Source: Corallococcus exiguus
Lineage (GTDB): Bacteria; Myxococcota; Myxococcia; Myxococcales; Myxococcaceae
Reading direction: 5' to 3' (one strand)
NCBI RefSeq assembly: GCF_017302975.1
Contig: NZ_JAFIMT010000003.1
DNA length: 64,000 bases
The translations under genes and the position numbers were made by a program. How positions within the stretch are numbered: position 1 is the first letter of the stretch; each line of letters begins with the position of its first letter. A model generated the notes under the pieces. It saw only the letters and a program-made list of their open reading frames with translations, had not been told where the DNA came from and made no database searches. Shown here in pieces: positions 3,861-50,691 of this stretch.

Positions 3861-4691
3861 GCGCGCCGCGATGTCGATGCGCCGGTAGAGCTCGTCTTCC
3901 TCGAAGAAGCACGGGAGGAACTCGCCTCCGTCCACGTCGTGCAGCGTGTGCCAGCGCGGCTCCGCGTCGCGGCGCTCCATCTGAGAGGCGTGCAGCGCCA
4001 GCGCGGCTCGCTTCTGCTCCACCACGCCCCGGAGGGACACCTTCGTCCGGAAGTCCTTGAGCATCCGCAGCCCCAGCCTCGTGGACACCGTTCCCGCGAG
4101 CACCGACCGCTGCTGCCTTCGCGTCCTCCCGAAGCCCACCATGGGCCAGTGCCTCCAGGCCCATACCGCGTACTCGAATACCGTGACGGGCCTCCCTACC
4201 CTTGCCACTGCCTCATGCACGAGGTGGTTCGTGCTCACGTGGTCCGCGTGTTCGCCCCGAGCGTACGGGACGAAGAGCTGCTCCGGCCGGTGCCTCCGCA
4301 GCAGGTCCTCCACCCTGGCCACTGCCGCCTCCTGGTTCGCGTGCAGCGCTCCGTCGGGAAAGCCCAGCAGGAAGACGTCCGCCTCATCCACTCCCAGGAC
4401 CTTCGCCGCGCCCAGCGCCTCTTGCGCTCGCTGTGCCTTCAGTTCGTCGCGTGAGATCAGGTGCGCGTGTGAGCTGGCACCGTCCGTCAGGAGGACGATC
4501 CGAACCGCCGCCCCCGCTCGCCGCTTCTGGAGGATGGCGCCCCCACACCCCAGCGTCTCGTCATCCGGGTGCGGCGCGAACACCATCGCGGGACACTGGA
4601 GTTCGTCCTCGTTGAACGTGCGGGCTCGCCGTCCCAGCGCCAGCCGCTGCAAGCGACGGAGTCCCCTCCTCACCGGGCTTCCGTCCATCAT
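3858..4691 (-). CDS. PIG-L family (LmbE-like) N-acetylglucosaminyl deacetylase
   Basis: HPDDETLGCGG motif and overall PIG-L layout. Start MMDGSPV at 4691 forms an ATGA overlap with the stop of the upstream GT1 (4688); the ORF-track 5' extension is an Arg/Gly-rich artefact. Confidence 0.75.
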   Translation of the reverse strand: MMDGSPVRRGLRRLQRLALGRRARTFNEDELQCPAMVFAPHPDDETLGCGGAILQKRRAGAAVRIVLLTDGASSHAHLISRDELKAQRAQEALGAAKVLGVDEADVFLLGFPDGALHANQEAAVARVEDLLRRHRPEQLFVPYARGEHADHVSTNHLVHEAVARVGRPVTVFEYAVWAWRHWPMVGFGRTRRQQRSVLAGTVSTRLGLRMLKDFRTKVSLRGVVEQKRAALALHASQMERRDAEPRWHTLHDVDGGEFLPCFFEEDELYRRIDIAAR

Positions 4692-5965
4692 CGCCGCGAT
4701 CCTTCCTCGAGGACCGCCTGGTAGAGCTCCGCGACCTTGCTCGCCACCACGTCCCAGCTGTAGCGCTGGCGCACCTGCGCGGCACCCGCTCGCGCCGCCA
4801 CGTCCAGCCGCACGGGGTTGGCGAGTGCCTGCCGCAGCGCCTGGGCCCAGTCCGCTACCTCCAGGGTCGGCACGCTCAGCCCTTCCGGACCAATGGCTCC
4901 GGCGAGATCCGCCAGACCCGAGTGCACCGCCAGCAATGCCGGCCTCCCCGCCGCCCATGCCTCCAACACCGCCAGCCCGAAGGCCTCGTGCGCCGAGGGC
5001 ACCAGCACGAGCCTGGAGAGCGCCAGGAGATCCGGAACCTCGCGGGCCGCGTCCAGATTGCCGAGGACATGGACGCGCTCGCCGAGCCCCAGTGCCTGGA
5101 TCTCTTGCTTCAGCTGTTCCCCATAGGCGGCGTCCACCGTCGCGCCCGCGAGGACCAGGTGGTGATCCTCGGGCGCCCCCACTGCGAAGGCCCTCACGGC
5201 CAACACCTGGTTCTTCTGCGGCGAAATGCGCCCCACCAGGGTGACCACGCGTGCGCTGGCGAACCGGGGCCAACGCTCTCTCGCCCGCTGCGCGCTTCCC
5301 TTGGCCATCCGCTCCAGGTCCACGCCCTGATCGAGCCTCACCGCCCGGTCCCCGACCACCTCGGCCAGGGCGCGACGCTCCTCTTCGTTGAAGGTGATGA
5401 CTCGCGCGGCGTCCTGGATGACGCGCCGGGCACCGAACAGCCATCCGATGGGCCGGCCCACATCGATGAGGCCGGACAGGCGCCGCGCGGTGTCCTGCTC
5501 CAGCCAGGACCTCCGCGCCAACAGCGGCCCATGCACCGAGATGACATAGGGGCGCCTCGTGAGCCTCATGGCCGTCCGCACGGATCCGCCGATGCGCCCC
5601 GCCGTGTGCAGGTGCGCCAGGGCCAGGCCCGTGTCCTTCGCGAGCCGGAGCGGCTCATCGAAGGTGGCCAGGTTGCCGGCATTGGCGACGAGCGCCCTTC
5701 GCTTCTCGGCCGGGCCCAGGAACGGACAGAACGCCTGATAGCGCAGCAGCGGCACCTCGGGGCCCAACGCTCGATCCGGCTCCGAGGGCCCCGCCGGTGC
5801 GTGCACCTCCGGCCCCCAGCCCAACGCCGCCAGCCGCCGCGTCACCTCCACGACGTGCGTCTCCGTCCCGCCCCACTCGCGCGGGTCGTACTTGCGAAGG
5901 ACATGCACCACGCGCCGCCCGGGGCGCTCCACAGCCGTCATATGCACGGGCAAGACGCAATTCAT
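4688..5965 (-). CDS. Glycosyltransferase family 1 (GT4-type)
   Basis: GT-B fold pattern, C-terminal E-x7-E-like region (SAHEAFGLAVLEAWAAGRPAL), typical length of 425 aa. Confidence 0.75.
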   Translation of the reverse strand: MNCVLPVHMTAVERPGRRVVHVLRKYDPREWGGTETHVVEVTRRLAALGWGPEVHAPAGPSEPDRALGPEVPLLRYQAFCPFLGPAEKRRALVANAGNLATFDEPLRLAKDTGLALAHLHTAGRIGGSVRTAMRLTRRPYVISVHGPLLARRSWLEQDTARRLSGLIDVGRPIGWLFGARRVIQDAARVITFNEEERRALAEVVGDRAVRLDQGVDLERMAKGSAQRARERWPRFASARVVTLVGRISPQKNQVLAVRAFAVGAPEDHHLVLAGATVDAAYGEQLKQEIQALGLGERVHVLGNLDAAREVPDLLALSRLVLVPSAHEAFGLAVLEAWAAGRPALLAVHSGLADLAGAIGPEGLSVPTLEVADWAQALRQALANPVRLDVAARAGAAQVRQRYSWDVVASKVAELYQAVLEEGSRR

Positions 5966-6020
5966 GGACCAGACACTCCGCGCCCCACCCGCGGCGTCCC
6001 TCCCTCCCCACTCCCATTCC

Positions 6021-6040
6021 GAGACGTCTCAATGCGAGAC
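6021..6040. promoter_or_regulatory. GAGACGTCTC palindrome plus GTCTC-AATGC-GAGAC motif in a divergent promoter region between two GT1 genes
   Basis: Located between divergent genes (5965 minus / 6112 plus); instance 1 of GTCTC-N5-GAGAC. Confidence 0.55.
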
Positions 6041-6111
6041 ATCCGGGCCGTGAATCAGCAAGGAGGCTGCTCGCGGGGAGGCATGTCCCCTGCAAGCGGC
6101 TGGGCCTGCCC

Positions 6112-9481: not shown

Positions 9482-10665
9482 GCCGCCTTCCCTCCCGCTC
9501 CCGCCACCGACTCCAGCAGCGTCAGGAGGCGCGTCACGTGCCGCTCGGGGACGAAGCGCTCCTCGTAGGTCCTTCGCGCGTGCGCCTCCATCGTCCTCCT
9601 CTGGTCCGGCGCCGCCATCAACCTATCGATCGCCTCCGCCAGCGCCTCCGGATCGTTTGGCGGCACGCCCAGCCCCGTCTCGCCTTCCTTCAGCCACTCC
9701 CCCACTCCGCCCACTCGGCTGGCGATGACCGGCGTCCCGTGCGCCAGTGCTTCGATGCCCACCAGTCCGGACGTCTCCGGCGCTCGGCTGGGGAAGACGA
9801 CGCATGCGGCCCGCCGGTACTGCTCGGAGAGCGATTCGGGCGCCATCGGGCCCAGGAAGGCCACTCGCTTCGACAACCCCAGCCCGTCCACCTTCGCGCG
9901 CAGCTCCTCCTCCTGCCGGCCCCGTCCCACCACCGCAAGGCGGCACGGCTGCGTGGTGCGTGTCAGCGCGTGGAACAGTACGTCCAGACCCTTGCCCGTC
10001 GTCAGCTGCCCTACGAACAGGAGCAGGTCCTCTTCTCGGTCCACTGGCACCCGAGGCTGGAGCGGGGCTTGCGCGTACAGCGGGATGACGTGCGTCCGCT
10101 CGCGTGGGAAGCCATGCTCCGCCACGTGGTCCGCCATGTACCGCGAGCCCACCACGAAGGCGTGATGACTCCGGGCCAGCGCCTGCTCCTCCCGCAACCT
10201 CCCCAGCGAGGCCCACTTCAGCCCGGGCCAGTCGTCTGAACGGCCCACGAAGCCGAGACATGGGTAGCAGGCAGCGCCCACCGGCTTCGTGCAGGGCTCC
10301 TTTCCCAGCGTCGTGTACTTGTGCTCGCGCAGGCAGAACAGCCGGTGGTCGTGGAAGAAGCGGACCACCGGCGCTGGCGAATCCACCAGCGCGCGCTGTG
10401 CCTTCAGGCTCGCGAGCTGATGCACGTAGACGACGTCCGGCGCCAGCTCCCTCAGCTGTCGCGCCAGGTCCACGATGGGGAAGATGCCCTCGAACGGCTC
10501 CCGCATCACCGGGTGCGGATCCGGCGAGACGTTCACGTCGTAGAAGAGCAGCGACGTCACTCCCCGCCTGCCCAGCTCCCTCGCGGTCTCCCGCACGTAG
10601 CGCTCGGCGCCACCTACGGGGGTAGCGGCGTCGTTGAGCCATGCGACCCTCAAGCCGCGGCCCAT
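9478..10665 (-). CDS. Glycosyltransferase family 1
   Basis: MGRGLRVAWLND.. N-terminus, C-terminal FPSRAPETSGLVGIEALAHGTPVIAS E-x7-E region. Start ATG 10665 lies 12 nt after the upstream stop at 10650. Confidence 0.75.
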   Translation of the reverse strand: MGRGLRVAWLNDAATPVGGAERYVRETARELGRRGVTSLLFYDVNVSPDPHPVMREPFEGIFPIVDLARQLRELAPDVVYVHQLASLKAQRALVDSPAPVVRFFHDHRLFCLREHKYTTLGKEPCTKPVGAACYPCLGFVGRSDDWPGLKWASLGRLREEQALARSHHAFVVGSRYMADHVAEHGFPRERTHVIPLYAQAPLQPRVPVDREEDLLLFVGQLTTGKGLDVLFHALTRTTQPCRLAVVGRGRQEEELRAKVDGLGLSKRVAFLGPMAPESLSEQYRRAACVVFPSRAPETSGLVGIEALAHGTPVIASRVGGVGEWLKEGETGLGVPPNDPEALAEAIDRLMAAPDQRRTMEAHARRTYEERFVPERHVTRLLTLLESVAGAGGKAA

Positions 10666-11873
10666 GGCGGTCTCCCGTCCGGGTTCGTCTCCCCTTCCAG
10701 ACCCAGCATCGCGATCACCCATCCGGCCACGTCCATCAGCGCGCCACGGTCCTGGGGCAGCGGCGCATCCGAGGCGATGGCCGCATACGCCGAGGGGCTG
10801 TCCACGTCGTAGCCGTGCATGCCTCGCACCTGGCCCCCCACGAAGCTGGGGGCGAACAGGGCTCCCTCCCGCAGCACGAAGAGGGCTTGTCCGTAAGGCG
10901 CCCCCCGCACGGGCGCCTGTCGCTCCACCAGCGCCTCCTCGTCCAGCCATCGGCCCGGGAGCCCGTGCGCCACCATCCGCTCGCGGGCCTTCTCGCGCGT
11001 CCGCTCATCACCCCAGACCCGCAGCATCGTGCTGTCCACGAACAGCCGCGTGCCTCGCAGCTCCCCGAGCATCCGTCGTGGATCCACCACTTCGTGGATG
11101 TCCGCCATTCCGTGGTCCCCCACCATCACCGTCGTCACGTCACCCCCGCCCGCGCGCATCGCATCCACCGTCTGTTCGATCCGCTCGGTGAGCCGCCGGG
11201 CTGTCGCGAGCGCGTCCTGGCTGCCGTTGCCCGTACGGTGCAGGGCTCCGTCCAGGGCGGTGGCGTACGCGAAGGCCAGGTCTGGCTTGCTCGTCCGTAA
11301 CACCGCGCAGGTGTGCGCCCAGCGCTCCTCCTCCGGCATCTGCCACGGTGCAGCGAACACCCGCAGGCCCGCGCGCCTCGCCCTCGTGAGGAACGTCTCC
11401 ACCCCGCCGATGCGCTCGGCCTTGAACAGGTCCTCCCGCTCCGGCAGGTCGAGCCAGCGGAACAGCTCCGGTGGGACGCGGTACAGGTCCACGTACCCGG
11501 TCAGCCCCTCCGTCCTCTTCAGCACCCGCGCAGCCGCACGCCTCAGCATGCCCCGCTCATGCACCTGGCGCGGCAGCAGCCCCAGCCACCTCAGCGGCGA
11601 CAGCACGCCTTCGTCCTCTCGCTCCGCGTGCGCGAAGAGGCACATCCGCCCATGCCGCTCCGGCGGCGCGCCGGTGAGGATCGTCGGCAGGGCGCCACAT
11701 GAATAGCCGAGGATGCCGCGCAGGCGGCCCCGGTGCGGCAACCCACGCAGCCCTTCGAAGGTCTCCAGCTGGGACGGGCCCAGCGCATCTACGAAGACCA
11801 CGAGTACACGACGCGGCCGGATGGGCCGTGCTCCGGCGCTGTCTCCTCGTGATGTCGTCTCTTCCCGGGACAT
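10650..11873 (-). CDS. Alkaline-phosphatase-superfamily protein (type I phosphodiesterase / nucleotide pyrophosphatase-like)
   Basis: VLVVFVDALG near the N-terminus and VMVGDHGM metal-binding motif typical of ENPP/AlkP-fold enzymes. Confidence 0.6.
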   Translation of the reverse strand: MSREETTSRGDSAGARPIRPRRVLVVFVDALGPSQLETFEGLRGLPHRGRLRGILGYSCGALPTILTGAPPERHGRMCLFAHAEREDEGVLSPLRWLGLLPRQVHERGMLRRAAARVLKRTEGLTGYVDLYRVPPELFRWLDLPEREDLFKAERIGGVETFLTRARRAGLRVFAAPWQMPEEERWAHTCAVLRTSKPDLAFAYATALDGALHRTGNGSQDALATARRLTERIEQTVDAMRAGGGDVTTVMVGDHGMADIHEVVDPRRMLGELRGTRLFVDSTMLRVWGDERTREKARERMVAHGLPGRWLDEEALVERQAPVRGAPYGQALFVLREGALFAPSFVGGQVRGMHGYDVDSPSAYAAIASDAPLPQDRGALMDVAGWVIAMLGLEGETNPDGRPPWAAA

Positions 11874-11879
11874 GGTTCT

Positions 11880-11894
11880 GTCTCAATGTGAGAC
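11880..11894. promoter_or_regulatory. GTCTC-AATGT-GAGAC motif in a divergent region (phosphodiesterase / co-polymerase genes)
   Basis: Instance 2; 7 bp upstream of the minus-strand gene ATG at 11873. Confidence 0.55.
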
Positions 11895-11999
11895 GGGCTC
11901 CGAGCGCTCCCGCCGTCAGCGACGGTGTCTGACATTGCAAGAGCTCCGCCACCCGCTCCCATCCAGGCTGGCATCCACCGTGCAGCCGGTCCGCACTGG

Positions 12000-13859
12000 A
12001 TGTTCTCGCTGGAAGAGGGCCCGGAGCCCGAAACGCAGACGGCGCTCGTGCGACAGGAGTCGGTGCACTCCGGGTATCCCGTTGATCCCCTGCGCATCGC
12101 GCGGGTGCTGCGGCGCCGCTGGCGGATCATCGCCGGGTGCTTCGTCGCGGGGATCGTCCTGGGCGTGCTGCTGGCCAAGACCGTGATGCCCCGCGAGTTC
12201 ACCGCTCGTACCATCCTCGTCTGGGAGCCCACGGGCTCGCGCGCGGCGGCGAACCCCGAGCGGGAGATCCAGACGCTGATGGACACGCTCAAGCTCCCCA
12301 ACAACCTGGAGGCGCTGCGCATGCGCACGGGCCTGCCGGTGACGCTGGAGGCTCTGGCCCGGCGGGTGGACATCGCCGTGGCCCGCGGCTCCAACATCCT
12401 CACCCTCTCCGCGACCGCAGCGAGCCCCGAGGAGGCGGTCCGGCTCTCCGACGCCATGACCCAGGTGTTCCTGGACCATCAGCGGGACTCGGAGCGGACG
12501 CGGGCCGAGGCACAGCTGAAGGCGCTGGGCGAGGAGGTGCTCAAGGTCCAGGCGCAGCTGGAGGAGGCCCGGGCGCGCTACGACGGCTTCCGCCAGGAGA
12601 ACGGCATCGCGGAGCTCACGCTCGACCGGCAGTCCTTCATCGAGGAGGCGGCGCGGCTGCGCACCGAGAAGAACCGCTTCCGCATCGAAGCGGAGTCCTC
12701 GGACGCCAGGGCGCTGTTGCTGAAGCAGGCGGCTCGCGAGCAGCCCAGCCGGATGGTGCTGTCGGAGACCGAGAGCTACTTCGAGCTGCGCAAGCTGGCC
12801 GAACTGCGCGCGGAGCTCGCCGCCCGCGGAGCAAATCTCTCCATGGAACATCCCGAGGTGGTGCAGCTCACCGCCGCCGTGCGGGCCCTGGAGTCCCGGC
12901 CCGCGGGTGGCACCGTCTCCGACCGCGTCGTGGGGACCAACCCCTCCTGGACCTTCCTCCAGAACAGCCTGCTGGACGCCGGCTCGCAGCGGGAGCTGGC
13001 CCAGAAGAAGTGGCGCGCCTACGCCGAGGCGGAAGAGGCCGCGAAGGAGCGCATCACACGGCTGTCCGCACTGGAGGGCCAGGCCAGTGCGCTGCTCGCG
13101 CGGATCCACATCACCGAGACTCGCCTCACCGAACTCCAGCAGCGTCAGAAGGTAGTGGAGGGCGAGGTGCGCCAGCCCGCGATGGAGCTGCGCGTGCTCA
13201 CCTCCGCCACGCCGCCGACGCGTCCCTCGAAGTCCTATCGCCGCGCGGTGGCCCTGCTGCTGCCTCCCTTCTTCGCGCTGCTGGCCGTGGTGGCGCTCAC
13301 CGCTTCCTCGCTGCGCGGCTTCAAGCTGTGGACGCCGGCCGAGTTCTCGTTCTGGGGAAGCGGCCCGGTGGTGGCCGCCACTCCCTGGCCCGCCACCGCT
13401 GAAGGCCTGGAGGAGCTCGTCGTGGAACTCCGGGCCGCGCTGGACGCGGCGAGCGGCGTGACGCGGGTGTTACCGCTCGGGGAAGCGCAGCAGGAGCGGA
13501 CGCGGGAGCTGCTGTCCCGGCTTGGGGCAACGGACGTCCCAGCGCGGGATGACGTCCCGGGACGAGGCGCGACGCTCGTTTCGTGGGAGGAGGCGCGGCG
13601 TCCGCAGGCGCTGCGTCTCGCGGTCCGCAAGGGGGCTCGGGTGCTCGTCCTCGCCAGCTCCGGCGCGCACTCCGTGTTCGAGATGTGGGCGCTGCGGCGG
13701 CTGCTCGGGAGCGAGGCTTGCGTTGGCTTCGTGGTGGTGGGGCTCGGCACCGACCTTGCTACCCATCCGGATCGCGTGGGCGACGTCATGGGCTTCTGGT
13801 CCGGCTCCGGAGCGTCGAGGGGCATGGAAGGGCCCTTCCCGCGAAAGGAGCCGCGCTGA
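12000..13859 (+). CDS. Polysaccharide co-polymerase (Wzz/Wzc-like chain-length determinant) lacking a tyrosine-kinase domain
   Basis: TM1 (IIAGCFVAGIVLGVLL), long coiled-coil periplasmic region, TM2 (AVALLLPPFFALLAVVAL), no Walker A in the C-terminal domain. ATG at 12000 (MFSLEEG); the ORF track begins at GTG 11925. Confidence 0.65.
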   Translation: MFSLEEGPEPETQTALVRQESVHSGYPVDPLRIARVLRRRWRIIAGCFVAGIVLGVLLAKTVMPREFTARTILVWEPTGSRAAANPEREIQTLMDTLKLPNNLEALRMRTGLPVTLEALARRVDIAVARGSNILTLSATAASPEEAVRLSDAMTQVFLDHQRDSERTRAEAQLKALGEEVLKVQAQLEEARARYDGFRQENGIAELTLDRQSFIEEAARLRTEKNRFRIEAESSDARALLLKQAAREQPSRMVLSETESYFELRKLAELRAELAARGANLSMEHPEVVQLTAAVRALESRPAGGTVSDRVVGTNPSWTFLQNSLLDAGSQRELAQKKWRAYAEAEEAAKERITRLSALEGQASALLARIHITETRLTELQQRQKVVEGEVRQPAMELRVLTSATPPTRPSKSYRRAVALLLPPFFALLAVVALTASSLRGFKLWTPAEFSFWGSGPVVAATPWPATAEGLEELVVELRAALDAASGVTRVLPLGEAQQERTRELLSRLGATDVPARDDVPGRGATLVSWEEARRPQALRLAVRKGARVLVLASSGAHSVFEMWALRRLLGSEACVGFVVVGLGTDLATHPDRVGDVMGFWSGSGASRGMEGPFPRKEPR

Positions 13860-14897: not shown

Positions 14898-16313
<1,416 letters not shown>

Positions 16314-16414
16314 GGTTTCGGGTCTCCTGACAGGGGGATGCGCTTGACGGGAGCTCGCCTCCGGTCCCGGTGATGCGCGAGGCCGGGCACTCGCACATCG
16401 GAGTACGCGGGACA

Positions 16415-16572
16415 GCAAACGCATCCGTTTGCACAGACCATTCCCGCATGTCGAGACATCCCCTCTGGTTGATCCGGATGCGCTCGGCCAACGACTTGTC
16501 CTCTGGCCTGTTTGACAAATCCCGCCGTTGTCTACGTTTGAGACATCCCGGCGTCCCCAGATGAGACATCCC
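16415..16572. promoter_or_regulatory. Regulatory region upstream of the NtrC-like gene: GCAAACG-CATC-CGTTTGC palindrome, three direct GAGACATCCC repeats and GTCTA-CGTTT-GAGAC
   Basis: Palindrome at 16415-16432; GAGACATCCC at 16453, 16540 and 16563; GTCTA-N5-GAGAC at 16530-16544; lies between divergent genes (16313 minus / 16664 plus). Confidence 0.6.
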
Positions 16573-16663
16573 GTTTCGGGACGCAGACAGGCCTGCGGCG
16601 ACCTGACACGCACCGGCAGCGCGTGCGACGCCATGGTTCCTGCCTTGCAAGCGGCAGCCGCCC

Positions 16664-17218
16664 ATGCGTGCGTCAGCGAAGTCAATCCATGCCTGCATGG
16701 AGCCGTTGCGCGCCCTGCGTTCGGACGGGGCTCGGGTGGTGGATGCGGTCAGGGACCGGGGGGCGCGCTTTCCCAGAGCCGCGGCCCTGGCGGATCCATC
16801 CTTATGGGCGGTGGGCCTGCTGCGGTGGGGGGCGGTGCTCCGGCGCGGACTGGGCACTTCACTGGGCCTGTCCACGCTGTTGCGCGTGGGCTTCCACATC
16901 GATGTGTGGACGGATGATATCGGCCCCGGCCTGAGGCTGCCGCACCCCTTCAACATCGTCATTGGCGATGGGGTGGAGATTGGCCCGGAGTGCACCCTGC
17001 TCCACGGCGTCACCGTCCAGAGGGGCGCGGGCACACGCATTGGCCGGGGCGTGGTGCTGGCCAACGGGACGACGGTGCTGGCGGGAGCGTCCGTGGGCGA
17101 CGGGAGCCTGGTGGGTGCGGCCAGCGTGGTGCGCGGAGACATTCCCCCTGCGTCCGTGGCGGTGGGCGTACCCGCGCGCGTCGTGCGGGCGTCCCGTCCC
17201 GGGGAGGCGGCTCCGTGA
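16664..17218 (+). CDS. Serine-acetyltransferase (CysE/LacA) family O-acetyltransferase, hexapeptide repeat
   Basis: IDVWTDDIGPGLRLPHPFNIVIGDGVEIG..GVPARVV closely parallels the CysE catalytic left-handed beta-helix. Alternative start MEPLRAL at 16694. Confidence 0.7.
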   Translation: MRASAKSIHACMEPLRALRSDGARVVDAVRDRGARFPRAAALADPSLWAVGLLRWGAVLRRGLGTSLGLSTLLRVGFHIDVWTDDIGPGLRLPHPFNIVIGDGVEIGPECTLLHGVTVQRGAGTRIGRGVVLANGTTVLAGASVGDGSLVGAASVVRGDIPPASVAVGVPARVVRASRPGEAAP

Positions 17219-18357
17219 GGCTGGCCGTCGCGTTGGGGGGAACGGATTGGGGGCGCTCGGGCATTGGCACGTATGTGCGTGCGATGCTGCCCCGGCTGAC
17301 ACGGGGGCTTGCGCGAACCGGGGGCCGGCTGGTGGCACTCGGCACGGCGCGGGACTTCGCCGCGTATGACCCGGAGCTCGTGGGCGCGGAGCGCGCGGTG
17401 GCACCGGCCGTCGTCGACACGCCCGCGCTGGGTGCATCTTGGTACCTCGCCCGCTGCGGAGCGCACGCGCGCGGGGCCGGAGCGGACGTGCTGCTGCTGC
17501 CCGCCGCCAATCGCCGCGTCGCGCTGCGGCCCGGCCTGCCCACGGTGGGCGTGGTGCACGACCTGGCCCAGTTCAACGTGCCGGACAAGTACGACCGGCT
17601 GCGCACCACCTACGTGAGATGGCTTCTGCCCAAGGCGCTGAGGTCCTTCGAGGCACTGGCTGCCGTCAGCCAGGCCACCCGCGGGGACATGGTGAGCTTC
17701 CTCTCCTGCGCGCCCGAGCGGATCCACGTCATCCCCAACGGCGTGGACGCGGACCGCTTCGCGCTCGGGGACGGCGCTGGTGCCGCGTGGGCCCGTGAGC
17801 GGCTGGGTTTGAAGGCGCCGTATCTGCTGTACCTGTCGCGACTGGAGCACCCGGGGAAGAACCACTTGCGGCTGCTGCGGGCCTTCGCCGCGTCCCCGGT
17901 GCGGGAGGACCATCAGCTGGTGCTGGCCGGCGCGGATTGGGGCGCCGAGCAGCTCATCCGGGAGGAGCTCCAGCGGCTGGGGCTCCAGGAGCGCGTGAGG
18001 ATCCTGGGCTACCTGGAGGACGGCCTCATCCCGGGCCTGGTCGCGGGCGCGGAGGCCCTCATCGCGGTGGGGCTGTGCGAGGGCTTCGGCCTGCCAGCGC
18101 TGGAGGCCATCGCGGCGGGAAAGCCCGTGCTGGCGGCCCGGGCGGGTGCGCTTCCGGAGGTGGTGGGCGAGCTGGGGGTGTTGTGCGATCCGCTCGACGA
18201 GCGGGACATGGCGGCGGCTCTGACGCGGGTGGTGCGGGATGAGCCACTGGCCGAGCGGGTGCGTCGCGAAGGGCCCGGGCACGCGCGCCAGCGCAGCTGG
18301 GACCGCACGGGCGATGATCTGCTGGCCTTGTGCCGCGCCGTGGGAGGCGTTCGATGA
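17215..18357 (+). CDS. Glycosyltransferase family 1
   Basis: GTG 17215 overlaps the upstream stop (GTGA); VRLAVALGGTDWGRSGIGTY N-terminus; GLCEGFGLPALEAIAAGKPVLA E-x7-E region. Confidence 0.75.
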   Translation: MRLAVALGGTDWGRSGIGTYVRAMLPRLTRGLARTGGRLVALGTARDFAAYDPELVGAERAVAPAVVDTPALGASWYLARCGAHARGAGADVLLLPAANRRVALRPGLPTVGVVHDLAQFNVPDKYDRLRTTYVRWLLPKALRSFEALAAVSQATRGDMVSFLSCAPERIHVIPNGVDADRFALGDGAGAAWARERLGLKAPYLLYLSRLEHPGKNHLRLLRAFAASPVREDHQLVLAGADWGAEQLIREELQRLGLQERVRILGYLEDGLIPGLVAGAEALIAVGLCEGFGLPALEAIAAGKPVLAARAGALPEVVGELGVLCDPLDERDMAAALTRVVRDEPLAERVRREGPGHARQRSWDRTGDDLLALCRAVGGVR

Positions 18358-19346
18358 AGGCTCCCCTCCCCCGAGCCCCGCTGCGAGACGTCCTGCGCGG
18401 GCGCGCTCCGCTGGTGGGCGCGCGCTTCAACGAGGTGCTGCCGCGCGGCTACCTGTCGCCGGTGGAGGCACGGTGGCTGCTCGGCCTGCCCTATGGCGAC
18501 CTCGCCGCCGAGGAGGCGCGCTATCTCCAGGGCCGCACCCCCGCGACGGACTTCGGCGTGATGTTGCGCACGTCGGTGGCTCGCGCGTTGGCACCGCCCG
18601 AGAGCGCCCAGCCCGAAGTGCGCCCATTCATCGTCTCCGCGCGCGTGGACAACCTCACGCTCGAACAGGCGGTGGAGCAGCTCTTCACGCAAGGACAAGG
18701 CGGCCGCGCGAAGCTGGTGTCCATCGTGCACCCGCACGCCTTGAACCTGGCGGCGCGCGACGTGGCGCTCGCGCGGGCGCTGGCGGAAGCGGACATGGTG
18801 CTGCCGGATGGCATTGGCATCCGAGTGGGCGCGGCGCTGCTCGGCGTGGCCATGCGCCACAACCTCAACGGCACGGACCTGTTGCCGCTGCTCTGCAAGC
18901 ACGCACCCGCGCGAGGCTGGCCCGTGGTGCTGGTGGGGGCGGCCCCCGGCGTGGCGGAGGCTTGCGCTGAGAACCTGCGAAGGGCCCACCCGGGCCTGGA
19001 GCTCCCCATCGTCTCGCACGGCTTCCTCACCGCCGCTGGCTCCCGCGCGCTGGCGGAGTCCATCTCACGGCTGGGCCCCTGCCTGGTGCTGGTGGGCATG
19101 GGCAGCCCCCGGCAGGAGCTGTGGGCGCGCGAGTACCTCTCTGGAGCCTCGCAGGCCGTCATCCTCACGGTGGGAGGGCTGTTCGACTTCTACTCGGGCC
19201 GGATCCAACGCGCGCCCATTGCCTGGCGTGAGCTGGGCCTGGAGTGGATGTATCGCCTGCTCCAGGAGCCCCGCCGGATGGCCGTCCGCTACCTGCTGGG
19301 CAATCCGCTCTTCCTGCTCCGCATCCTCTGGCAGAAGCTGCGGTAG
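18354..19346 (+). CDS. WecB/TagA/CpsF-family glycosyltransferase (GT26)
   Basis: ATGA overlap with the upstream gene; LPDGIGI.. and LVGMGSPRQELW motifs typical of WecG/TagA. Confidence 0.7.
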   Translation: MKAPLPRAPLRDVLRGRAPLVGARFNEVLPRGYLSPVEARWLLGLPYGDLAAEEARYLQGRTPATDFGVMLRTSVARALAPPESAQPEVRPFIVSARVDNLTLEQAVEQLFTQGQGGRAKLVSIVHPHALNLAARDVALARALAEADMVLPDGIGIRVGAALLGVAMRHNLNGTDLLPLLCKHAPARGWPVVLVGAAPGVAEACAENLRRAHPGLELPIVSHGFLTAAGSRALAESISRLGPCLVLVGMGSPRQELWAREYLSGASQAVILTVGGLFDFYSGRIQRAPIAWRELGLEWMYRLLQEPRRMAVRYLLGNPLFLLRILWQKLR

Positions 19347-19349
19347 GCC

Positions 19350-20852
19350 TCAGGGTGCGTACGTCGGCACCTCGCTGCCCACCGGAGTGGATGCAGCCGC
19401 CGCGAGGCGTGCATCCCGCCGCCACCAGACGAGCAGCGCCATCCCGGTCCCCAGCAGCGTGACGAGCGCGCAGATGCACGCGCTTCCGAACGGGCCTCGC
19501 GAGGCGAAGGGAGCGAGTCCCCAGCCCACGACGAATGACACGAGGCCCGCGGCTCCGACCGGGGCCAGTGCCCAGAGCACCTCCCGGACGGTCCACTGGA
19601 CCAGGGCGCGGACCTTGCGCCAGACGAGCACGGCGATGACCCCGTTTCCGAGGACGGTGCCTCCGGCGACGGCCCACGCACCGGCGTACCTCACCCCGGC
19701 CATGGAGACGGCGACGTTGAGCGCGTGGCCGATGAGCACCGGGTGGGTCAGGTGCCACGGCGTCTCACCGCTCACGGCCAGGGCCGAGGACGCGCTCTCC
19801 TCCGCGGCCGCGATGATGGCCGCTGTGCCCAGGAGGACGACCGCGAGCATGGTGACGGAGTCGTGCGCGAGTGCGCCCACCCAGGCCTCCAGCAGGGCGG
19901 TGCCATCCAGGGCCAGCGCGATGACACCGCTGGAGGCCAGGCCGCCCAGAAGGGCCGTGCCGAGGCGCAGCGCGCTGGAGCGGTGCCGGGCATCTCCGAG
20001 GCGATGGATGAGCCATCCACCCGCTTGTTTCGCGAAGGCGAGGATCTGCTCCACTGCGCGGGAGGCCACCTGATACGCGCCCACCGAGCTCAGGGACGCG
20101 GAGCGGGTCAGGATGAGGACATCCGCTCGGACCGCCGCCGCGATGCCCACGTTCATGGCCAGGGCCGCGGCGCCCTGCCGGAACGCGCTGCGCACCTGGG
20201 CCGGATCCGCCGGCCATCCAGGACGCAGCGAGAGGTGCGGGTCGATGCGCCTGGACACCGCCGCGAGGAGCAGGAGCTCCAGCGTGGCTCCCGCGAACAG
20301 CCCCAGCGCCGGCGCAAGCAACGAGCGCGTGGTGCCGAGCACCGCCGCCGTCAACGCAATCTGGGTCGCGGCTCCGATGGCGCGCGCCCAGGCGAGCGAG
20401 GTGTTGGCGCCCCGCATCAGCAGGAACGCTCGCAACGGTGCCACCAGCGAGCCCGCGAGTCCCGCCGCGAGGACCGGAAGCGCGGCGCGGGCCACGTCCG
20501 CGCGCAGCGCTTCGGACGCGGACGGGAGGTGGAGGAAGAACACGTACGCACAGACGCAGAGACAGGGACAGACGAGCGTCACCACCAGCAGCGTGAGCCG
20601 GATGAGCTGGCGCGTGGCGGCATCGTCCGGTCTGGCCGCCGTGCGTTGGACCGCGATGCTGAGGCCCAGGTCCGACAACCCAAGGAGGAAGCCCGTCGTG
20701 CCAAGGACGCCCCAGGCGCCCAGACTCTCCGGACCGAGCAGACGCACCACCAGCGCGACCGTCGCCAGCCCCGTCACGATCTGCACCACATGCCGAGCGC
20801 ACGACGCGAGCACGTCGACGCTCATCCTCAGGAGCGATCTCTCAGGGGCCAT
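19350..20852 (-). CDS. Wzx-type polysaccharide flippase (MOP superfamily)
   Basis: About 12-14 hydrophobic segments across 500 aa; N-terminal region resembles the polysaccharide-biosynthesis (RfbX/Wzx) family. Alternative start MSVDV at 20825. Confidence 0.65.
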   Translation of the reverse strand: MAPERSLLRMSVDVLASCARHVVQIVTGLATVALVVRLLGPESLGAWGVLGTTGFLLGLSDLGLSIAVQRTAARPDDAATRQLIRLTLLVVTLVCPCLCVCAYVFFLHLPSASEALRADVARAALPVLAAGLAGSLVAPLRAFLLMRGANTSLAWARAIGAATQIALTAAVLGTTRSLLAPALGLFAGATLELLLLAAVSRRIDPHLSLRPGWPADPAQVRSAFRQGAAALAMNVGIAAAVRADVLILTRSASLSSVGAYQVASRAVEQILAFAKQAGGWLIHRLGDARHRSSALRLGTALLGGLASSGVIALALDGTALLEAWVGALAHDSVTMLAVVLLGTAAIIAAAEESASSALAVSGETPWHLTHPVLIGHALNVAVSMAGVRYAGAWAVAGGTVLGNGVIAVLVWRKVRALVQWTVREVLWALAPVGAAGLVSFVVGWGLAPFASRGPFGSACICALVTLLGTGMALLVWWRRDARLAAAASTPVGSEVPTYAP

Positions 20853-20899
20853 GCGCCCCTGACCATTGCAGCCGGTATGCCGGTGGACGAGGCGCTGGC

Positions 20900-21658: not shown

Positions 21659-21690
21659 TCAAACACAGCCACAGGGAGCAACTTCACCGG

Positions 21691-21715
21691 AACGTGTCTC
21701 GAATTGAGACACGTT
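21691..21715. promoter_or_regulatory. Perfect 10-bp-arm palindrome AACGTGTCTC-GAATT-GAGACACGTT (GTCTC-N5-GAGAC core); operator and/or terminator hairpin downstream of serC
   Basis: Lies in the 71-bp gap between the serC stop (21730) and the methyltransferase start (21658); no U-tract follows. Confidence 0.55.
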
Positions 21716-22861: not shown

Positions 22862-23851
22862 GTGGAACTCCGGGGGTCACGAGCAACGTGGGCTCGGGCG
22901 GACGGTGGCCTTCGTCCGCCCGGTGGGGGTGGTAGCGTCCCAGGCGTGTCCCCTGCTCCCACTCCTTTGGCCTCCGCCTTTCTCGCGGCTCCTGGCCGCG
23001 CGTCTGCTTCGCTCGCGGAGCCCTCGCGCCTGGAGGAGTTGCTCCGTGCGTCGCTCGAGCGCGCCCGGTCGCGCTGGCCCGGGCTGGAGCTGGAGGCGCT
23101 CGCCTTCGTGGTGTTCGTCGCTGAGCGATTGACGTCTCCAACGGGGCTGCTGGAGGCGCTCGAAGGGGCCTCGCCTGCCTTCTCGGAGTTGTACCTGGCC
23201 TTCGGGTGCCTGCGGCACGACCGCGCCGCGCTCCAGTTCTTCGAGGACGGCTACCTTCGCGATGTCGGCGCGTTCGTGTCCGGCGTGGACCGCTCGCCCG
23301 CTTTCGTCGCGGAGGTGCGGCAGGTGCTCCGGGAGAAGCTGTTCACGGCTGCCGCTGGCTGTGAGCCGAAGATTTCGGAGTTCACCGGCGGCGGCGCGCT
23401 GGGCGGATGGGTGCGGGTGGCGGCGCTGCGCATCGCGCTCAACTTGAAGCGCTCCGAGACCCGGGCCGACACCGCCGCGCAGGACTCCGTCGAGTCCGCG
23501 TTCGGTGAACAGCTGGGGCCGGAGCTCGAACACCTGCGCTCGCGATACCGCGAGGCCTTCACGGAGGCCGTGCGCACGGCGCTGGGTGAGCTGTCCGACC
23601 GGGACCGCACGCTCATGCGCCTGTATCACGTGGAGTCGCTGTCGCTGGACGCCATCGCGGCGCTCTACCGCGTCCACATGTCCACGGTGTCGCGGTGGCT
23701 CAGCCGCGCGCGGGAGCAGGTGGCGGAGGCCACGACGCGGCGGCTCTGCGAACGCCTGGGGGTGGGCGCGTCCTCGGTGGACAGCATCGCGGCGCTGGTC
23801 GTGAGCCAGGTGGACCTCAGCCTGACGCGGCTGCTCGGTCCGGGGGGCTGA
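22862..23851 (+). CDS. RNA polymerase sigma factor, ECF-like (sigma-70 family)
   Basis: Region 4 [47 protein letters not shown]; region 2-like segment upstream. True start is probably internal (329 aa is long for an ECF sigma). Confidence 0.65.
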
Positions 23852-24921: not shown

Positions 24922-27645
24922 ATGTCGGGATGTCCCTCCGAGGAAACGATTCTCGCCTTCGTGGAGGACCGCCTGCCGCATGAGCAGCGCGCCCTCGCGG
25001 AGGCGCACCTGTCCCGCTGCGATTCCTGCGGGTCGCTGCTCGCGGCCGTCGCGGCGACGTGGCACGCGGAGGGCCGGTTCGTGGAGGCGGCTCCGCCCCG
25101 CTCGTTCGCTCCTGGGGAGCGGGTGGGGCCGTACGTCATCGTCGCCCATGCGGGCAGTGGCGCGATGGGGGACGTGTACCGGGCTCGCGATGGGCGGCTG
25201 GGACGGGACGTGGCCTTGAAGGTGCTCCCGCTCCGGTTCGCGCAGGACGCGGAGCGCCTGGCCCGTTTCCGACAGGAGGCCCGCGCGGCGGGCGCGCTGT
25301 CCCATCCCCACCTGCTCACGCTGTTCGACGTGGGGACCCACGAGGACGTGCCGTACCTCGTCACCGAGTGGCTGGAGGGGGGCACCCTGCGGGCGCGGCT
25401 GATGCGTGGGCCGCTTCCACCAGAGCAGGCGCTGCGGCTGGGCATCCAGTTGTCACAGGGGCTCGCGGCCGCGCACGCGCGTGGCGTCATCCACCGCGAC
25501 CTCAAGCCCGCGAACATCTTCCTGTGCTCGAACGGCAGCGCGCGGGTCCTCGACTTCGGGCTGGCCCGGCTCACCGAGCGCATCGAGGACGCCTCGCTCA
25601 CCCAGAGCGGCGCGGTGGTGGGCACCGCCGGGTACATGGCTCCGGAGCAGATCCGCGGCCAGGGCGTGGATGCTCGCGCGGATGTGTTCTCGCTCGGCGC
25701 GGTGCTCTACGAGGCCGTGAGCGGCCGTGCTCCCTTTGGCGGTGACAGCCCGGTGGAGCGGATGAGCGCCGCGCTCCGCGATGCGCCTCCCGTGCTGCCG
25801 GGAGAGCTGGGGACCGTGATTGCTCGCTGTCTGGCGAAGGATCCAGGCGAACGGTTCCAGTCCGCGCAGGACCTGGCCTTCGCCCTGGAGTCCATCGCGG
25901 CTCGTGGTGTGCCCCTGGCCTTGCGGCGCGGAGTGTTCCCACGCCCTGCCCTGTGGGTGGCCGCGGCGGCCGTGCTGCTGTCTGTCGTGGGTGGCTTCCT
26001 GGCGTTCGGACACAGGCCGGCGACTGCGGCGGTGCCAACGGCGCAGTCCTCACGCCCGACGTTCCGCCCCGTCACGTTCCGCCGGGGCCACGTGCTCAAC
26101 GCCCGGTTCTCCGCGGACGGACACACGTTGCTCTATGGCGCGGCGTGGGAGGGAGGACCCGCGGAGCTCTACAGCGCGCGCACGGAGCGTCCGCTGTCAC
26201 AACCGCTGGGGCAGCACGCGGATGTGCTCGCCGCGTCCTCGAAGGGGGAGCTGGCGGTGCTGCTCGAGCCCCGGTTCTTCGACGCCGAGCATGGCAGCGG
26301 GACGCTCGGCTTGATGCCGCTCGCGGGCGGCGCGCCCCGGGCCGTGCTCGATGGCGTGCTGGAGGCGGACTGGGGACGTGCGGATGGACCGCTCGCGGTG
26401 GTGCGCCGCGTGGGCGAGAACTTCCGGCTGGAGCAGCCCCCCGGCACGGTGCGCTTCGAATCCCAGGGATGGATCAGCCACGCACGCGTCTCCCCCGACG
26501 GAGCGCGGATCGCCTTTCTGTTCCATGCACATCCCAAGGACGACCGGGGCGGGGTCTGGGTGCTGGAGAAGGACGGTCCGCCCCGCGAGCTTTCGTCGGG
26601 CTGGGCGAGCATCCGGGGGCTGGCGTGGTCTCCCGATGGAAGCGAGGTGTGGTTCACCGCCTCGCGTACAGGCGCGGACTCCGAGCTGTTCGCGGTCGAC
26701 CTGCGCGGCACGACGCGGCCGGTGGATCGGATCGCCGGGCGGATGGTGCTGCATGACATCTCCCAGGACGGCTCCGTCCTGGTGGATCACCCGGTGATCC
26801 GCACGGGGCTGGCGTTCGGGCACGCGGGCACGGAGCGGGACCTGACGTGGTCGGACTCGTCGTTCATGACGGACATGTCCCGCGATGGCCGGACCTTCCT
26901 CTTCACCGAGGGCGCGGAGGTGGAGGGCCCCACCTACGGCGCCTATCTGCGCACCTCCGATGGCGCACCACCGATCCGCCTGGGCGACGGCATCCCCATG
27001 GCGCTGTCTCCGGACGGCAAGCAGGTGCTGCTGGTGCGCTACGGCGAACAGATGGAGTTCCTGCTGCTGCCCACGGGCGCGGGCGAGCCTCGGTCGCTGT
27101 CGCTCGCTCCTGTCACCACGGTGCTCACGGCGCGCTGGTTCCCGGATGGGAAGCGGTTGCTCCTTCGCGCGCACGAAGAGGGACGTCCTGCCCGGCTCTG
27201 GGTCTTCGAACCCGGCTCTGGAGCCCCCAGGCCCATCACAGAGGAAGGCACGGGCTTCCACACGGTCATCTCTCCGGACGGAGCACGGCTCGCGGCGGTG
27301 GATGCGGAGGGAAACCTTCGCATGTTCTCCGCGACCGGCGAGGCGCTGGAAACGGTCCCCGGTCAGTTCACGGATCAATGGGTCGTGGGCTGGGACGCGA
27401 GCGGAACGGCGCTCTACCTGCGAAGCATCTCGCTCCCGGTGCGCGTCTCCAGGGTCGACGTGAAGACTGGCGCGAGCACGCCACACCTGACCCTTCCGGC
27501 GGGGGGCGTCATGCCGGGCCTCATCTCCGTGATGACGCTGGCGATCTCCGAGGACGGAAAGTTCTACACATACAGTTACAACGAAGCGCTTTCCCGGCTG
27601 TATCTGGTGAAAGGATTGGTGGGAGCCCGGTCTTCCCCGCAATAG
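24922..27645 (+). CDS. Ser/Thr protein kinase with N-terminal zf-HC2 anti-sigma-like domain, one TM segment and C-terminal TolB-like beta-propeller
   Basis: N-terminus CPSEETILAFVEDRL..HLSRCDSCG (zf-HC2 anti-sigma motif). Kinase motifs GSGAMGDVY, VALKVL, HRDLKPANIF, DFGLAR, GYMAPE. TM (LWVAAAAVLLSVVGGFLAF). C-terminal repeated PDG..AF.. blade motifs. Confidence 0.85.
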   Translation: MSGCPSEETILAFVEDRLPHEQRALAEAHLSRCDSCGSLLAAVAATWHAEGRFVEAAPPRSFAPGERVGPYVIVAHAGSGAMGDVYRARDGRLGRDVALKVLPLRFAQDAERLARFRQEARAAGALSHPHLLTLFDVGTHEDVPYLVTEWLEGGTLRARLMRGPLPPEQALRLGIQLSQGLAAAHARGVIHRDLKPANIFLCSNGSARVLDFGLARLTERIEDASLTQSGAVVGTAGYMAPEQIRGQGVDARADVFSLGAVLYEAVSGRAPFGGDSPVERMSAALRDAPPVLPGELGTVIARCLAKDPGERFQSAQDLAFALESIAARGVPLALRRGVFPRPALWVAAAAVLLSVVGGFLAFGHRPATAAVPTAQSSRPTFRPVTFRRGHVLNARFSADGHTLLYGAAWEGGPAELYSARTERPLSQPLGQHADVLAASSKGELAVLLEPRFFDAEHGSGTLGLMPLAGGAPRAVLDGVLEADWGRADGPLAVVRRVGENFRLEQPPGTVRFESQGWISHARVSPDGARIAFLFHAHPKDDRGGVWVLEKDGPPRELSSGWASIRGLAWSPDGSEVWFTASRTGADSELFAVDLRGTTRPVDRIAGRMVLHDISQDGSVLVDHPVIRTGLAFGHAGTERDLTWSDSSFMTDMSRDGRTFLFTEGAEVEGPTYGAYLRTSDGAPPIRLGDGIPMALSPDGKQVLLVRYGEQMEFLLLPTGAGEPRSLSLAPVTTVLTARWFPDGKRLLLRAHEEGRPARLWVFEPGSGAPRPITEEGTGFHTVISPDGARLAAVDAEGNLRMFSATGEALETVPGQFTDQWVVGWDASGTALYLRSISLPVRVSRVDVKTGASTPHLTLPAGGVMPGLISVMTLAISEDGKFYTYSYNEALSRLYLVKGLVGARSSPQ

Positions 27646-50141: not shown

Positions 50142-50350
50142 CGCGCGCTCCCCAGGTCGTCGTCCTCGTCGTACTGGCGCACGCCGGAGACGTCCGACAG
50201 GTTGATGTAGACGGGTGTGGCGCCATCCGGCCCGGTGAGGTGGACGACGTCGTCGATGAGCTCCACCACCAGGCCCACGTACACCTGGCCCAACGTGGTG
50301 AAGAGGTAGCAGCGCTGCCCCATGCTGGCTTCGAGCAGCTTGCGCATCAC
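50138..50350 (-). CDS. Small protein (70 aa), tail-like operon
   Basis: ATGA overlaps at both ends (50350/50347 and 50141/50138) support translation. Confidence 0.4.
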   Translation of the reverse strand: MMRKLLEASMGQRCYLFTTLGQVYVGLVVELIDDVVHLTGPDGATPVYINLSDVSGVRQYDEDDDLGSAR

Positions 50351-50691
50351 TCCTCCAGCTTCTGCACCAGCCGCGTGGCCAGCTTCACGCGCGTGTCCAC
50401 CCAGACGCCCACGTCGCGCTGACGCTCGGAGGCGAGCCTGCGGCGCGCGGCGCGAACCAGGTCCTGGAGCGTCACGGGCACCGTGGGCACCGGCGGCAGT
50501 CGGGAGATGCGCACGTCCAGCGCCCGGAGCACGGAGGTGTCCAGGTCCAGCTTCGCGCGCGTGCCGGCCAGGTTCTCCAGCGTCGCGGCCTTCGCGTCGG
50601 GCGCGTCCGGCGTGGCGGAGAGGGAGACCTCGGGCAGCGCCGTGCGCTGGAGGGCGACACGGCCACTGAGGGCGAAGGGGTCGGGCATGGG
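50347..50691 (-). CDS. Small protein (about 115 aa) immediately after the fibre-like gene; position analogous to a fibre-assembly chaperone
   Basis: Start MPDPFAL at 50691, 28 nt after the giant-gene stop 50720; the upstream ORF-track extension overlaps the giant gene. Confidence 0.4.
   Translation of the reverse strand, partial: PMPDPFALSGRVALQRTALPEVSLSATPDAPDAKAATLENLAGTRAKLDLDTSVLRALDVRISRLPPVPTVPVTLQDLVRAARRRLASERQRDVGVWVDTRVKLATRLVQKLEE

Follow-up and report, generated by a model that had tools for sequence, protein, structure and literature searches.

GAGAC half-site repeats as a putative sigma-54 enhancer within a polysaccharide gene cluster of Corallococcus exiguus

Why would a short intergenic region of a myxobacterial genome carry the same ten nucleotides three times over? 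The case considered here is a stretch of 64,000 nucleotides from Corallococcus exiguus (contig NZ_JAFIMT010000003.1), hereafter the window, in which the gene of a sigma-54 enhancer-binding protein (the activator) and an acetyltransferase operon are read away from each other. If GTG 16313 is the start codon of the activator and ATG 16664 that of the acetyltransferase, the divergent intergenic region measures 350 bp (16314-16663), the length already given by a preceding sequence-only reading of this DNA. That reading had described a palindrome and three direct copies of GAGACATCCC, suggested autoregulation or multi-site binding by a regulator recognizing GAGAC half-sites, and seen no convincing sigma-54 element. 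A conserved sigma-54 promoter is nevertheless present, and because of it the interpretation shifts from some GAGAC-binding factor to a sigma-54 enhancer: we think it probable, from sequence comparison, that the repeats are enhancer sites through which the adjacent activator would act on the promoter at 16634. The features of the region and of its flanks are as follows.

14898-16313, minus strand: activator gene, encoding 471 amino acids (aa), with the Pfam domains Response_reg, Sigma54_activat, AAA_lid_14 and HTH_8
16415-16432: palindrome GCAAACG-CATC-CGTTTGC, overlapping both the -12 element and the predicted start site of the minus-strand promoter candidate
16430-16445, minus strand: candidate sigma-54 promoter of the activator gene, GGGAATGGTCTGTGCA, with GG-N10-GC spacing
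16453-16462, plus strand: distal copy of GAGACATCCC, a lone half-site separated by 7 bp from the -24 end of the minus-strand promoter candidate
16530-16544: Site I, GTCTAcgtttGAGAC, one mismatch, holding the second GAGACATCCC (16540-16549), its centre 98 bp before the -24 GG (about -122)
16553-16567: Site II, GTCCCcagatGAGAC, one mismatch, its centre 75 bp before the -24 GG (about -99)
16578-16582, plus strand: degenerate third half-site GGGAC, 15 bp after the GAGAC at 16563, where relatives have GAGAC
16634-16649, plus strand: sigma-54 (-24/-12) promoter, TGGTTCCTGCCTTGCA, conserved
16664-17218, plus strand: hexapeptide (EpsC/CysE-like) acetyltransferase, first gene of the target operon
17215-18357, plus strand: GT4 glycosyltransferase, second gene of the target operon
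18330-19346, plus strand: WecG/TagA/CpsF glycosyltransferase, third gene of the target operon

The promoter at 16634 and its upstream half-sites

To which promoter could such repeats belong? The earlier statement that no convincing sigma-54 element exists turned out to be wrong. The box TGGTTCCTGCCTTGCA has its GG and GC canonically spaced, 10 nt apart, and a perfect TTGCA; it agrees with TGGCACG-N4-TTGCW at 9 of the 11 consensus positions and is one of only four exact TGG-N8-TTGCW matches on both strands of the window. It ends 14 nt before the ATG (16664) of the acetyltransferase/GT4/WecG operon, with a predicted start site at about 16660, 4 nt before that ATG. A scan of 16250-16750 returned no sigma-70-type promoter or terminator. 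An RNA-element reading of the divergent region was dropped because a scan of 16200-16800 gave no Rfam match at E up to 1.

The comparison relies on ten orthologous loci (L005-L014), retrieved via homologous proteins and the contigs that encode them. Since L007 is a duplicate of L006 and L008 hardly differs from the window, nine non-redundant intergenic regions were compared (window, L005, L006 and L009-L014), covering Corallococcus, Pyxidicoccus, Cystobacter and Archangium as well as metagenome-assembled genomes (MAGs). Wherever the upstream gene can be identified (which leaves out the short contig L011), the activator is divergent from an acetyltransferase gene, except in L006/L007, where it faces the GT4 gene directly. 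The order acetyltransferase/GT4/WecG is kept in L005, L008 and L015, the acetyltransferase and GT4 genes in L010, L012, L013 and L014, and the acetyltransferase only in L009.

In all nine regions a plus-strand box with the same GG/GC spacing is found, as TGGTTCCYGCMTTGCA in Myxococcaceae-type loci (L005, L006, L008, L011) and as TGGAACG-N4-TCGCA in Archangiaceae-type loci (L009, L010, L012-L014), and in all nine it stands 24-30 nt before the first ATG that follows. In L006/L007 (about 5660-5740, on the reverse strand) deletion has left a 13-codon open reading frame (ORF) as the remnant of the acetyltransferase gene, and the sigma-54 box, the conserved ATG and the ATGA overlap with the GT4 start are all retained. 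The first ATG after the box thus opens nothing more than this remnant in L006, and in L012 it is probably not a gene start. Because the first ATG is 24-30 nt after the TGG throughout, the sigma-54 transcripts are predicted to be leaderless or nearly so, with the ATG at about +2 to +6. Across the window, the start codons at 5941, 12000, 16664 and 20852 come 14-15 nt after a -12 element of the TTGCA type, which makes at least four promoters with this arrangement. The activator gene is different: its leader is long and its Shine-Dalgarno sequence strong.

What, then, is repeated upstream of this promoter? Reading the sequence and scanning for exact matches bore out the three direct copies of GAGACATCCC at 16453, 16540 and 16563, which are spaced by 87 and 23 bp. 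No further exact copy exists on either strand of the 64 kb, all three being inside the 350-bp divergent region, and a 10-mer occurring at least three times was seen in 0.065% of 20,000 mononucleotide shuffles of these 350 bp. The exact 10-mer is not, however, what has been conserved: relatives carry GAGACRTCC or just GAGAC, spaced differently. When k-mers were counted over the nine regions without prior choice, GTCTCA/TGAGAC came out on top, with 25 occurrences observed against 1.19 expected (P about 1e-24, a value that overstates independence because orthologous sequences are related), and it occurs in every one of the nine. The expectation that the repeats would be conserved in relatives thus holds for the GAGAC half-sites and fails for the 10-mer, and the proposed multi-site binding by a regulator of such half-sites gains strong comparative backing.

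Judged from these alignments, the conserved unit is the interrupted palindrome GTCTC-N5-GAGAC, not the 10-mer. Its 5-bp arms start 10 bp apart; in relatives it is usually succeeded by RTCC and then by a third GAGAC at +15 bp. Half-sites of the GAGAC/GTCTC type form an array upstream of the plus-strand box in 9 of 9 regions, with 3-6 half-sites each in the relatives, and in eight of the nine loci the centre of the central palindrome is 71-80 bp upstream of the -24 GG, or about -100 from the predicted start; an insertion in L012 brings this distance to 125 bp. At up to one mismatch, the motif did not occur in four unrelated control loci (46 kb). The GTCTA-N5-GAGAC described by the sequence-only reading was found again at 16530-16544 as Site I, one mismatch away from the conserved form. 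Site II, 23 bp downstream of Site I and followed by the third copy of GAGACATCCC (16563-16572), is the one that aligns with the perfect central palindrome of the relatives. L006 and L008 keep the distal copy at 16453, which in L005 and L011 is found in degenerate form; at the corresponding place, L010 and L014 carry a palindrome with one mismatch. The stretch between the sites and the promoter was also inspected for an IHF site or an intrinsic bend: in Archangiaceae-type loci it holds a conserved ATGAAACACAT block, with no clear WATCAANNNNTTR match by eye, and the window has no equivalent of this block.

Could the identical copies be nothing more than the trace of a recent 23-26-bp duplication in Corallococcus, with no function beyond a single ancestral site? 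The copies starting at 16539 and 16562 share an identical 12-mer, TGAGACATCCCG, and the repeat finder places identical 12-mers 23 bp apart and the 19-nt units GTTTGACAAATCCCGCCGT and GTTTGAGACATCCCGGCGT 26 bp apart, while relatives show a 15-bp half-site spacing and lack Site I. Site I itself, from the repeat families (D1, D3) and the alignment, seems to be an addition, or a duplicate, of the Corallococcus lineage. The exact identity over 10-12 nt probably does stem from a unit of 23-26 bp having been duplicated locally and recently, and is no sign that the whole 10-mer is recognized. Duplication accounts for that identity, but not for the conservation and position of half-sites in all relatives, where multiple sites (3-6 half-sites) are the rule as well; the distal copy at 16453 is, moreover, also found in L006. 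As a complete explanation it is very unlikely.

A second alternative takes the repeats as C-box-like elements (CAYYCCY, here CATCCCY), read by C-signal-dependent FruA/MrpC. The C-box CAYYCCY is an element of Myxococcus xanthus developmental promoters, and GAGACATCCCC at 16453 includes CATCCCC. Copies 2 and 3, however, read CATCCCG and fail at the last position, so that one copy in three fits; the Archangiaceae-type flank is GTCC, with CAY lost and GAGAC invariant; and the enriched k-mers are TGAGAC/GTCTCA, not CATCCC, of which the window has 56 occurrences. The conserved core being GAGAC, this reading was rejected, and we regard it as barely credible.

We therefore return to the enhancer. Two dyad sites are found within the roughly 80-150 bp before the start that such an enhancer calls for, together with a presumed cognate activator having GAFTGA and HTH_8. 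The GAGACATCCC repeats would be half-sites of an upstream activator sequence, where dimers of the activator would bind GTCTC-N5-GAGAC via the C-terminal HTH_8, occupying Sites I and II and the flanking single half-sites. Some 100 bp before the start site, the bound dimers would form an AAA+ oligomer; DNA looping would then bring it to the sigma-54 polymerase held at TGGTTCCTGCCTTGCA, to be remodelled through the GAFTGA loop. In this way the acetyltransferase/GT4/WecG operon would be switched on, from a messenger RNA that is nearly leaderless.

The activator and its own promoter

What signal might such an activator obey? The gene starts with GTG, preceded at 8 nt by an AGGAGA Shine-Dalgarno sequence, and its translation displays GAFTGA and the Walker motifs. 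The protein is 98% identical to one of Corallococcus sp. CA041A; orthologues in Pyxidicoccus, another Corallococcus and MAGs are 79-88% identical, those of Cystobacter, Archangium and related metagenomic contigs about 62-66%. There is no NCBIfam equivalog for it, PrsR, NtrC, AtoC and others all scoring below cut-off, and a contig scan with the receiver domain as query returned unrelated loci only.

The receiver (residues about 16-105) was aligned with CheY and NtrC as references. At the positions of CheY D12, D13, D57, T87 and K109, the window protein and its closest relatives read D-R-E-T-K, with Arg at the place of Asp13 and Glu at that of the phospho-acceptor Asp57, which is not the canonical receiver of an NtrC-type two-component regulator. 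Archangiaceae-type orthologues read S-R/N-D-A-K (the Asp is kept, the acidic pocket and the Thr are lost), and more distant homologues D-D-D-T-K. The window receiver thus looks like a pseudo-receiver. Neither the cluster nor any orthologous neighbourhood contains a HisKA/HATPase_c kinase gene. Because of the Glu at the phospho-acceptor position and of the missing kinase gene nearby, we infer that the activity of this protein is probably not under classical phosphorylation control. In NtrC, which normally needs phosphorylation of Asp54, Glu at that position (D54E) is partly constitutive or activating.

Is the activator gene itself a target? On its strand, the box at 16430-16445 is kept as GGGAAYGG-N3-TGTGCA in both family groups (9 of 9 regions) while its flanks diverge. 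That it is a sigma-54 promoter for the activator gene is a suggestion towards which the comparison tips us, though not by much. If so, the promoter would be served by the same enhancer, which would therefore be bidirectional, and the activator would be autoregulated. The autoregulation suggested earlier is plausible to this extent, as it follows from a conserved GG-N10-GC box on the activator's strand. The distal GAGACATCCC (16453), standing by the -24 element of this minus-strand promoter, could modulate or even repress it.

The palindrome GCAAACG-CATC-CGTTTGC, to which the sequence-only reading had drawn attention, is present as described at 16415-16432; it is not statistically notable and is conserved only in part. 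Shuffling the same 350 bp gives an equally perfect inverted repeat (7-bp arms, loop of up to 10) in 26% of cases, and because of this the palindrome is, on its own, within chance. Arms of 5 bp (CAAAC/GTTTG) are seen in L005 and L011 and 4 of these 5 positions in L006; Archangiaceae-type loci have no such palindrome. Its right arm coincides with the -12 element of the minus-strand box. Could it still be a repressor operator, or an RNA hairpin, controlling the activator gene? In favour of this are its overlap with the -12 element and predicted start of a conserved box, the persistence of its CAAAC/GTTTG arms in L005 and L011, and, in L006, a CAAAT that would keep a G-U pair in RNA. Yet the frequency of equivalents in shuffles, the absence from Archangiaceae-type loci and the lack of an Rfam match go against such a role; the right arm is simply the -12 element, and the 5' arm would remain untranscribed if transcription starts about 12 nt after the GC. 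An operator or hairpin is unlikely, and no function is assigned with confidence to the palindrome.

The motif across the polysaccharide cluster

Does the same site type occur elsewhere? Perfect GTCTC-N5-GAGAC is found three times in the window (6026, 11880 and 21696) for 0.14 expected, a count that none of 100 shuffles reached, and all three copies fall between genes of the polysaccharide cluster around them, where intergenic regions are few; this cluster also encodes GT4 glycosyltransferases and a methyltransferase. The features that matter here are as follows.

2452-4164: Wzy-like protein
5956-5971, minus strand: sigma-54-type box TGGTCCATGAATTGCG, one of a divergent pair around the 6021-6040 array
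6021-6040: second enhancer-like array, GAGACGTCTCaatgcGAGAC, with the perfect GTCTC-N5-GAGAC at 6026
6079-6094, plus strand: sigma-54-type box AGGCATGTCCCCTGCA, the other of the divergent pair
10650-11873: phosphodiesterase-family protein
11880-11894: perfect palindrome GTCTCaatgtGAGAC, lying 83 bp before the -24 GG of TGGCATCCACCGTGCA
11936-11951, minus strand: sigma-54-type box TGGCGGAGCTCTTGCA, a candidate only
11969-11984, plus strand: sigma-54-type box TGGCATCCACCGTGCA, before the chain-length-determinant gene (ATG 12000)
12000-13859, plus strand: chain-length determinant
19350-20852, minus strand: Wzx flippase
20867-20882, minus strand: sigma-54-type box CGGCATACCGGCTGCA, ending 14 nt before the Wzx flippase ATG (20852)
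21692-21714: 23-bp perfect palindrome ACGTGTCTCgaattGAGACACGT, between the aminotransferase and methyltransferase genes, upstream of methyltransferase-Wzx

The sites at 6026 and 11880 adjoin sigma-54-type promoters that recur in Pyxidicoccus and in MAGs. The Pyxidicoccus counterpart of the 6026 pair has a perfect palindrome at L015:19162 and TGGTCCGCGAATTGCC at 19230, before a gene for a GT4 protein of 417 aa. The 11880 palindrome is kept upstream of the phosphodiesterase-family gene in L005, L006, L008, L010 and L016, and in a Polyangia MAG, where the activator shows 56% identity and a canonical receiver, three palindromes and CGGCATCGCCCATGCA stand before the orthologous gene. The box upstream of Wzx recurs as CGGCATACAAGCTGCA in L006 and as CGGCATATGGACTGCA in the Pyxidicoccus locus L015. 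Since the same site type accompanies other sigma-54-type promoters of the cluster, the activator would be a cluster-specific master activator of this Wzx/Wzy-type polysaccharide system. The boldest form of the proposal, in which the whole Wzx/Wzy cluster (about seven promoters) is sigma-54-wired by one non-phosphorylated activator, with bidirectional enhancers that include its own and near-leaderless transcripts, is tentative, and we hold it to be possible but doubtful.

Several details of these intergenic regions deserve mention in their own right. A homologue of TGGCGGAGCTCTTGCA at L006:12315-12330 belongs to the 3' end of a Wza (Poly_export) gene, which the window lacks at this place; the box at 11936-11951 may be a remnant of the lost Wza gene, a promoter, or both. 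L006 has TGGTCCAGCAGTTGCA before its methyltransferase gene, unlike the window at 21692-21714. There, the palindrome was judged unlikely to be an intrinsic terminator: it is without a T-run, and its core is that of the other sites. A 13-nt identity, GGCTGTGTTTGAT, between the window (21660-21672, minus strand) and the activator leaders of L005, L006 and L011 was discarded as being at about chance level (an estimated 0.7 or so expected).

How far can binding be ascribed to the adjacent activator rather than to another factor? Its recognition helix, GRATLYRR in HTH_8, is common to many activators, and because of this it does not predict GAGAC specificity; the assignment comes from co-occurrence and position. 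Other facts weigh in the same direction, against an enhancer served by this protein. Both central palindromes of the window have a mismatch where relatives have a perfect copy, and the candidate activator-gene promoter fits 7 of the 11 consensus positions only. The 6021-6040 array is a mere 47 and 63 bp from the GG of its two promoters; the 11880 palindrome is downstream of the minus-strand promoter at 11936-11951, an odd place for an enhancer; and no sigma-54 box adjoins the 21696 palindrome in this genome. To these must be added the relatedness of the sequences behind the k-mer statistics.

One may accordingly ask whether the GAGAC/GTCTC sites are bound by a factor encoded elsewhere, such as a global developmental or envelope-stress regulator, with the adjacent activator using other sequences. 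The undistinctive helix and the ill-placed sites at 11880 and 21696 would suit this explanation. It fits poorly, however, with the co-occurrence of the sites with activator orthologues in Myxococcaceae, Archangiaceae-type and Polyangia loci, and with the fixed 71-80 bp to the -24 GG in eight of nine loci. These neighbourhoods share no other regulator gene, the activator being the sole DNA-binding protein that they all encode, and the nine regions hold no other repeated motif of like enrichment. We consider such a factor distinctly unlikely. While the sequences, with their statistics, conservation and positions, can be read directly from the DNA, it is from them that we infer the identity of the binding protein, activation, autoregulation and independence of phosphorylation; activation by the divergently encoded protein remains the preferred account.

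The cluster is flanked, in this genome, by the genes of a sigma-70 region-4 / HTH protein and of a Ser/Thr kinase, neither of which is kept beside it in Pyxidicoccus, L006 or Cystobacter. Beyond superoxide dismutase and flavin-reductase genes, from about 29158 to 60000, comes a phage-tail-like cluster of the extracellular contractile injection system type, and the syntenic flank in Pyxidicoccus (L015:1-2593) has sheath and gp19 tube genes.

22862-23851, plus strand: protein of 329 aa with a sigma-70 region-4 / helix-turn-helix (HTH) domain, flanking the polysaccharide cluster
24922-27645, plus strand: Ser/Thr kinase of 907 aa with PD40 repeats, flanking the polysaccharide cluster
29158-31599: Pvc16_N/AAA ATPase, phage-tail-like cluster
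31631-39709: ORF of 2692 aa, phage-tail-like cluster
48954-50384, minus strand: Phage_base_V spike, phage-tail-like cluster
50720-59896, minus strand: ORF of about 3058 aa, phage-tail-like cluster

Known systems and what the motif adds

How much of this is new? The layout is standard, with dyad sites about 100 bp upstream of a -24/-12 promoter and the activator divergent, and the motif itself is new to the literature searched, in which nothing relevant was found on GAGAC/GTCTC with sigma-54, nor on leaderless sigma-54 transcripts in Myxococcus. Current understanding is not overturned by these findings. Few of the many sigma-54 activators of myxobacteria have known binding sites, and GTCTC-N5-GAGAC provides a testable recognition motif for an uncharacterised activator family spread over Corallococcus, Pyxidicoccus, Cystobacter/Archangium and a Polyangia lineage, together with a map, promoter by promoter, of the probable way in which a surface-polysaccharide cluster of a myxobacterium is turned on. 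The natural Glu receiver would be a useful case for the control of an activator without a kinase, as would the near-leaderless promoter-ATG spacing for the translation of sigma-54 transcripts.

The classical reference is NtrC, which recognizes TGCACCA-N3-TGGTGCA with half-sites one helical turn apart. At enteric glnAp2, two adjacent NtrC sites about 100-140 bp upstream of the -24/-12 promoter support cooperative binding and oligomerisation. The resemblance lies in dyad half-sites about 10 bp apart and in two adjacent sites placed far upstream; the sequence of the site differs, and whereas NtrC needs phosphorylation of Asp54, Glu is the natural residue of the window activator.

Among myxobacterial systems, EpsI/Nla24 of the M. 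xanthus eps locus resembles the protein studied here in being NtrC-like (receiver, AAA+, HTH) and in having its gene within a Wzx/Wzy exopolysaccharide cluster. It is required for polysaccharide production, is phosphorylated by the adjacent kinase MXAN_7439 and binds cyclic di-GMP (c-di-GMP), its DNA site not being defined in these studies (PMC4877007, PMC7484181). The window activator, by contrast, has no kinase gene nearby and carries Glu at the phospho-acceptor position. Because no M. xanthus-named protein is found among the activator matches above 66% identity, the window cluster probably differs from the eps locus of that species. The same finding, the missing adjacent kinase and the NCBIfam scores below cut-off are indirect signs against orthology of the window activator to EpsI (MXAN_7440).

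Nla28 of M. xanthus, which is autoregulated, uses 2-5 tandem 8-bp half-sites per promoter region (PMC9765219). As here, these stand upstream of TGGCACG-N4-TTGCW promoters and the regulator's own gene is a target (here only presumed so); unlike here, the half-site is a tandem 8-bp CT(C/G)CG(C/G)AG with variable spacers, and there is a canonical kinase partner, Nla28S. The closest described case is PexR of M. xanthus, whose enhancer serves the katB and ahpC promoters and where three tandem CACCG-n6-CGGTG sequences precede a sigma-54 promoter, an arrangement found Myxococcota-wide (PMC12754779). PexR differs in its motif, in sensing through a GAF domain and in its peroxide-defence targets, against GTCTC-N5-GAGAC, a receiver and polysaccharide genes here. 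The two systems share a divergent activator, a short intergenic region and tandem interrupted palindromes with 5-bp arms.

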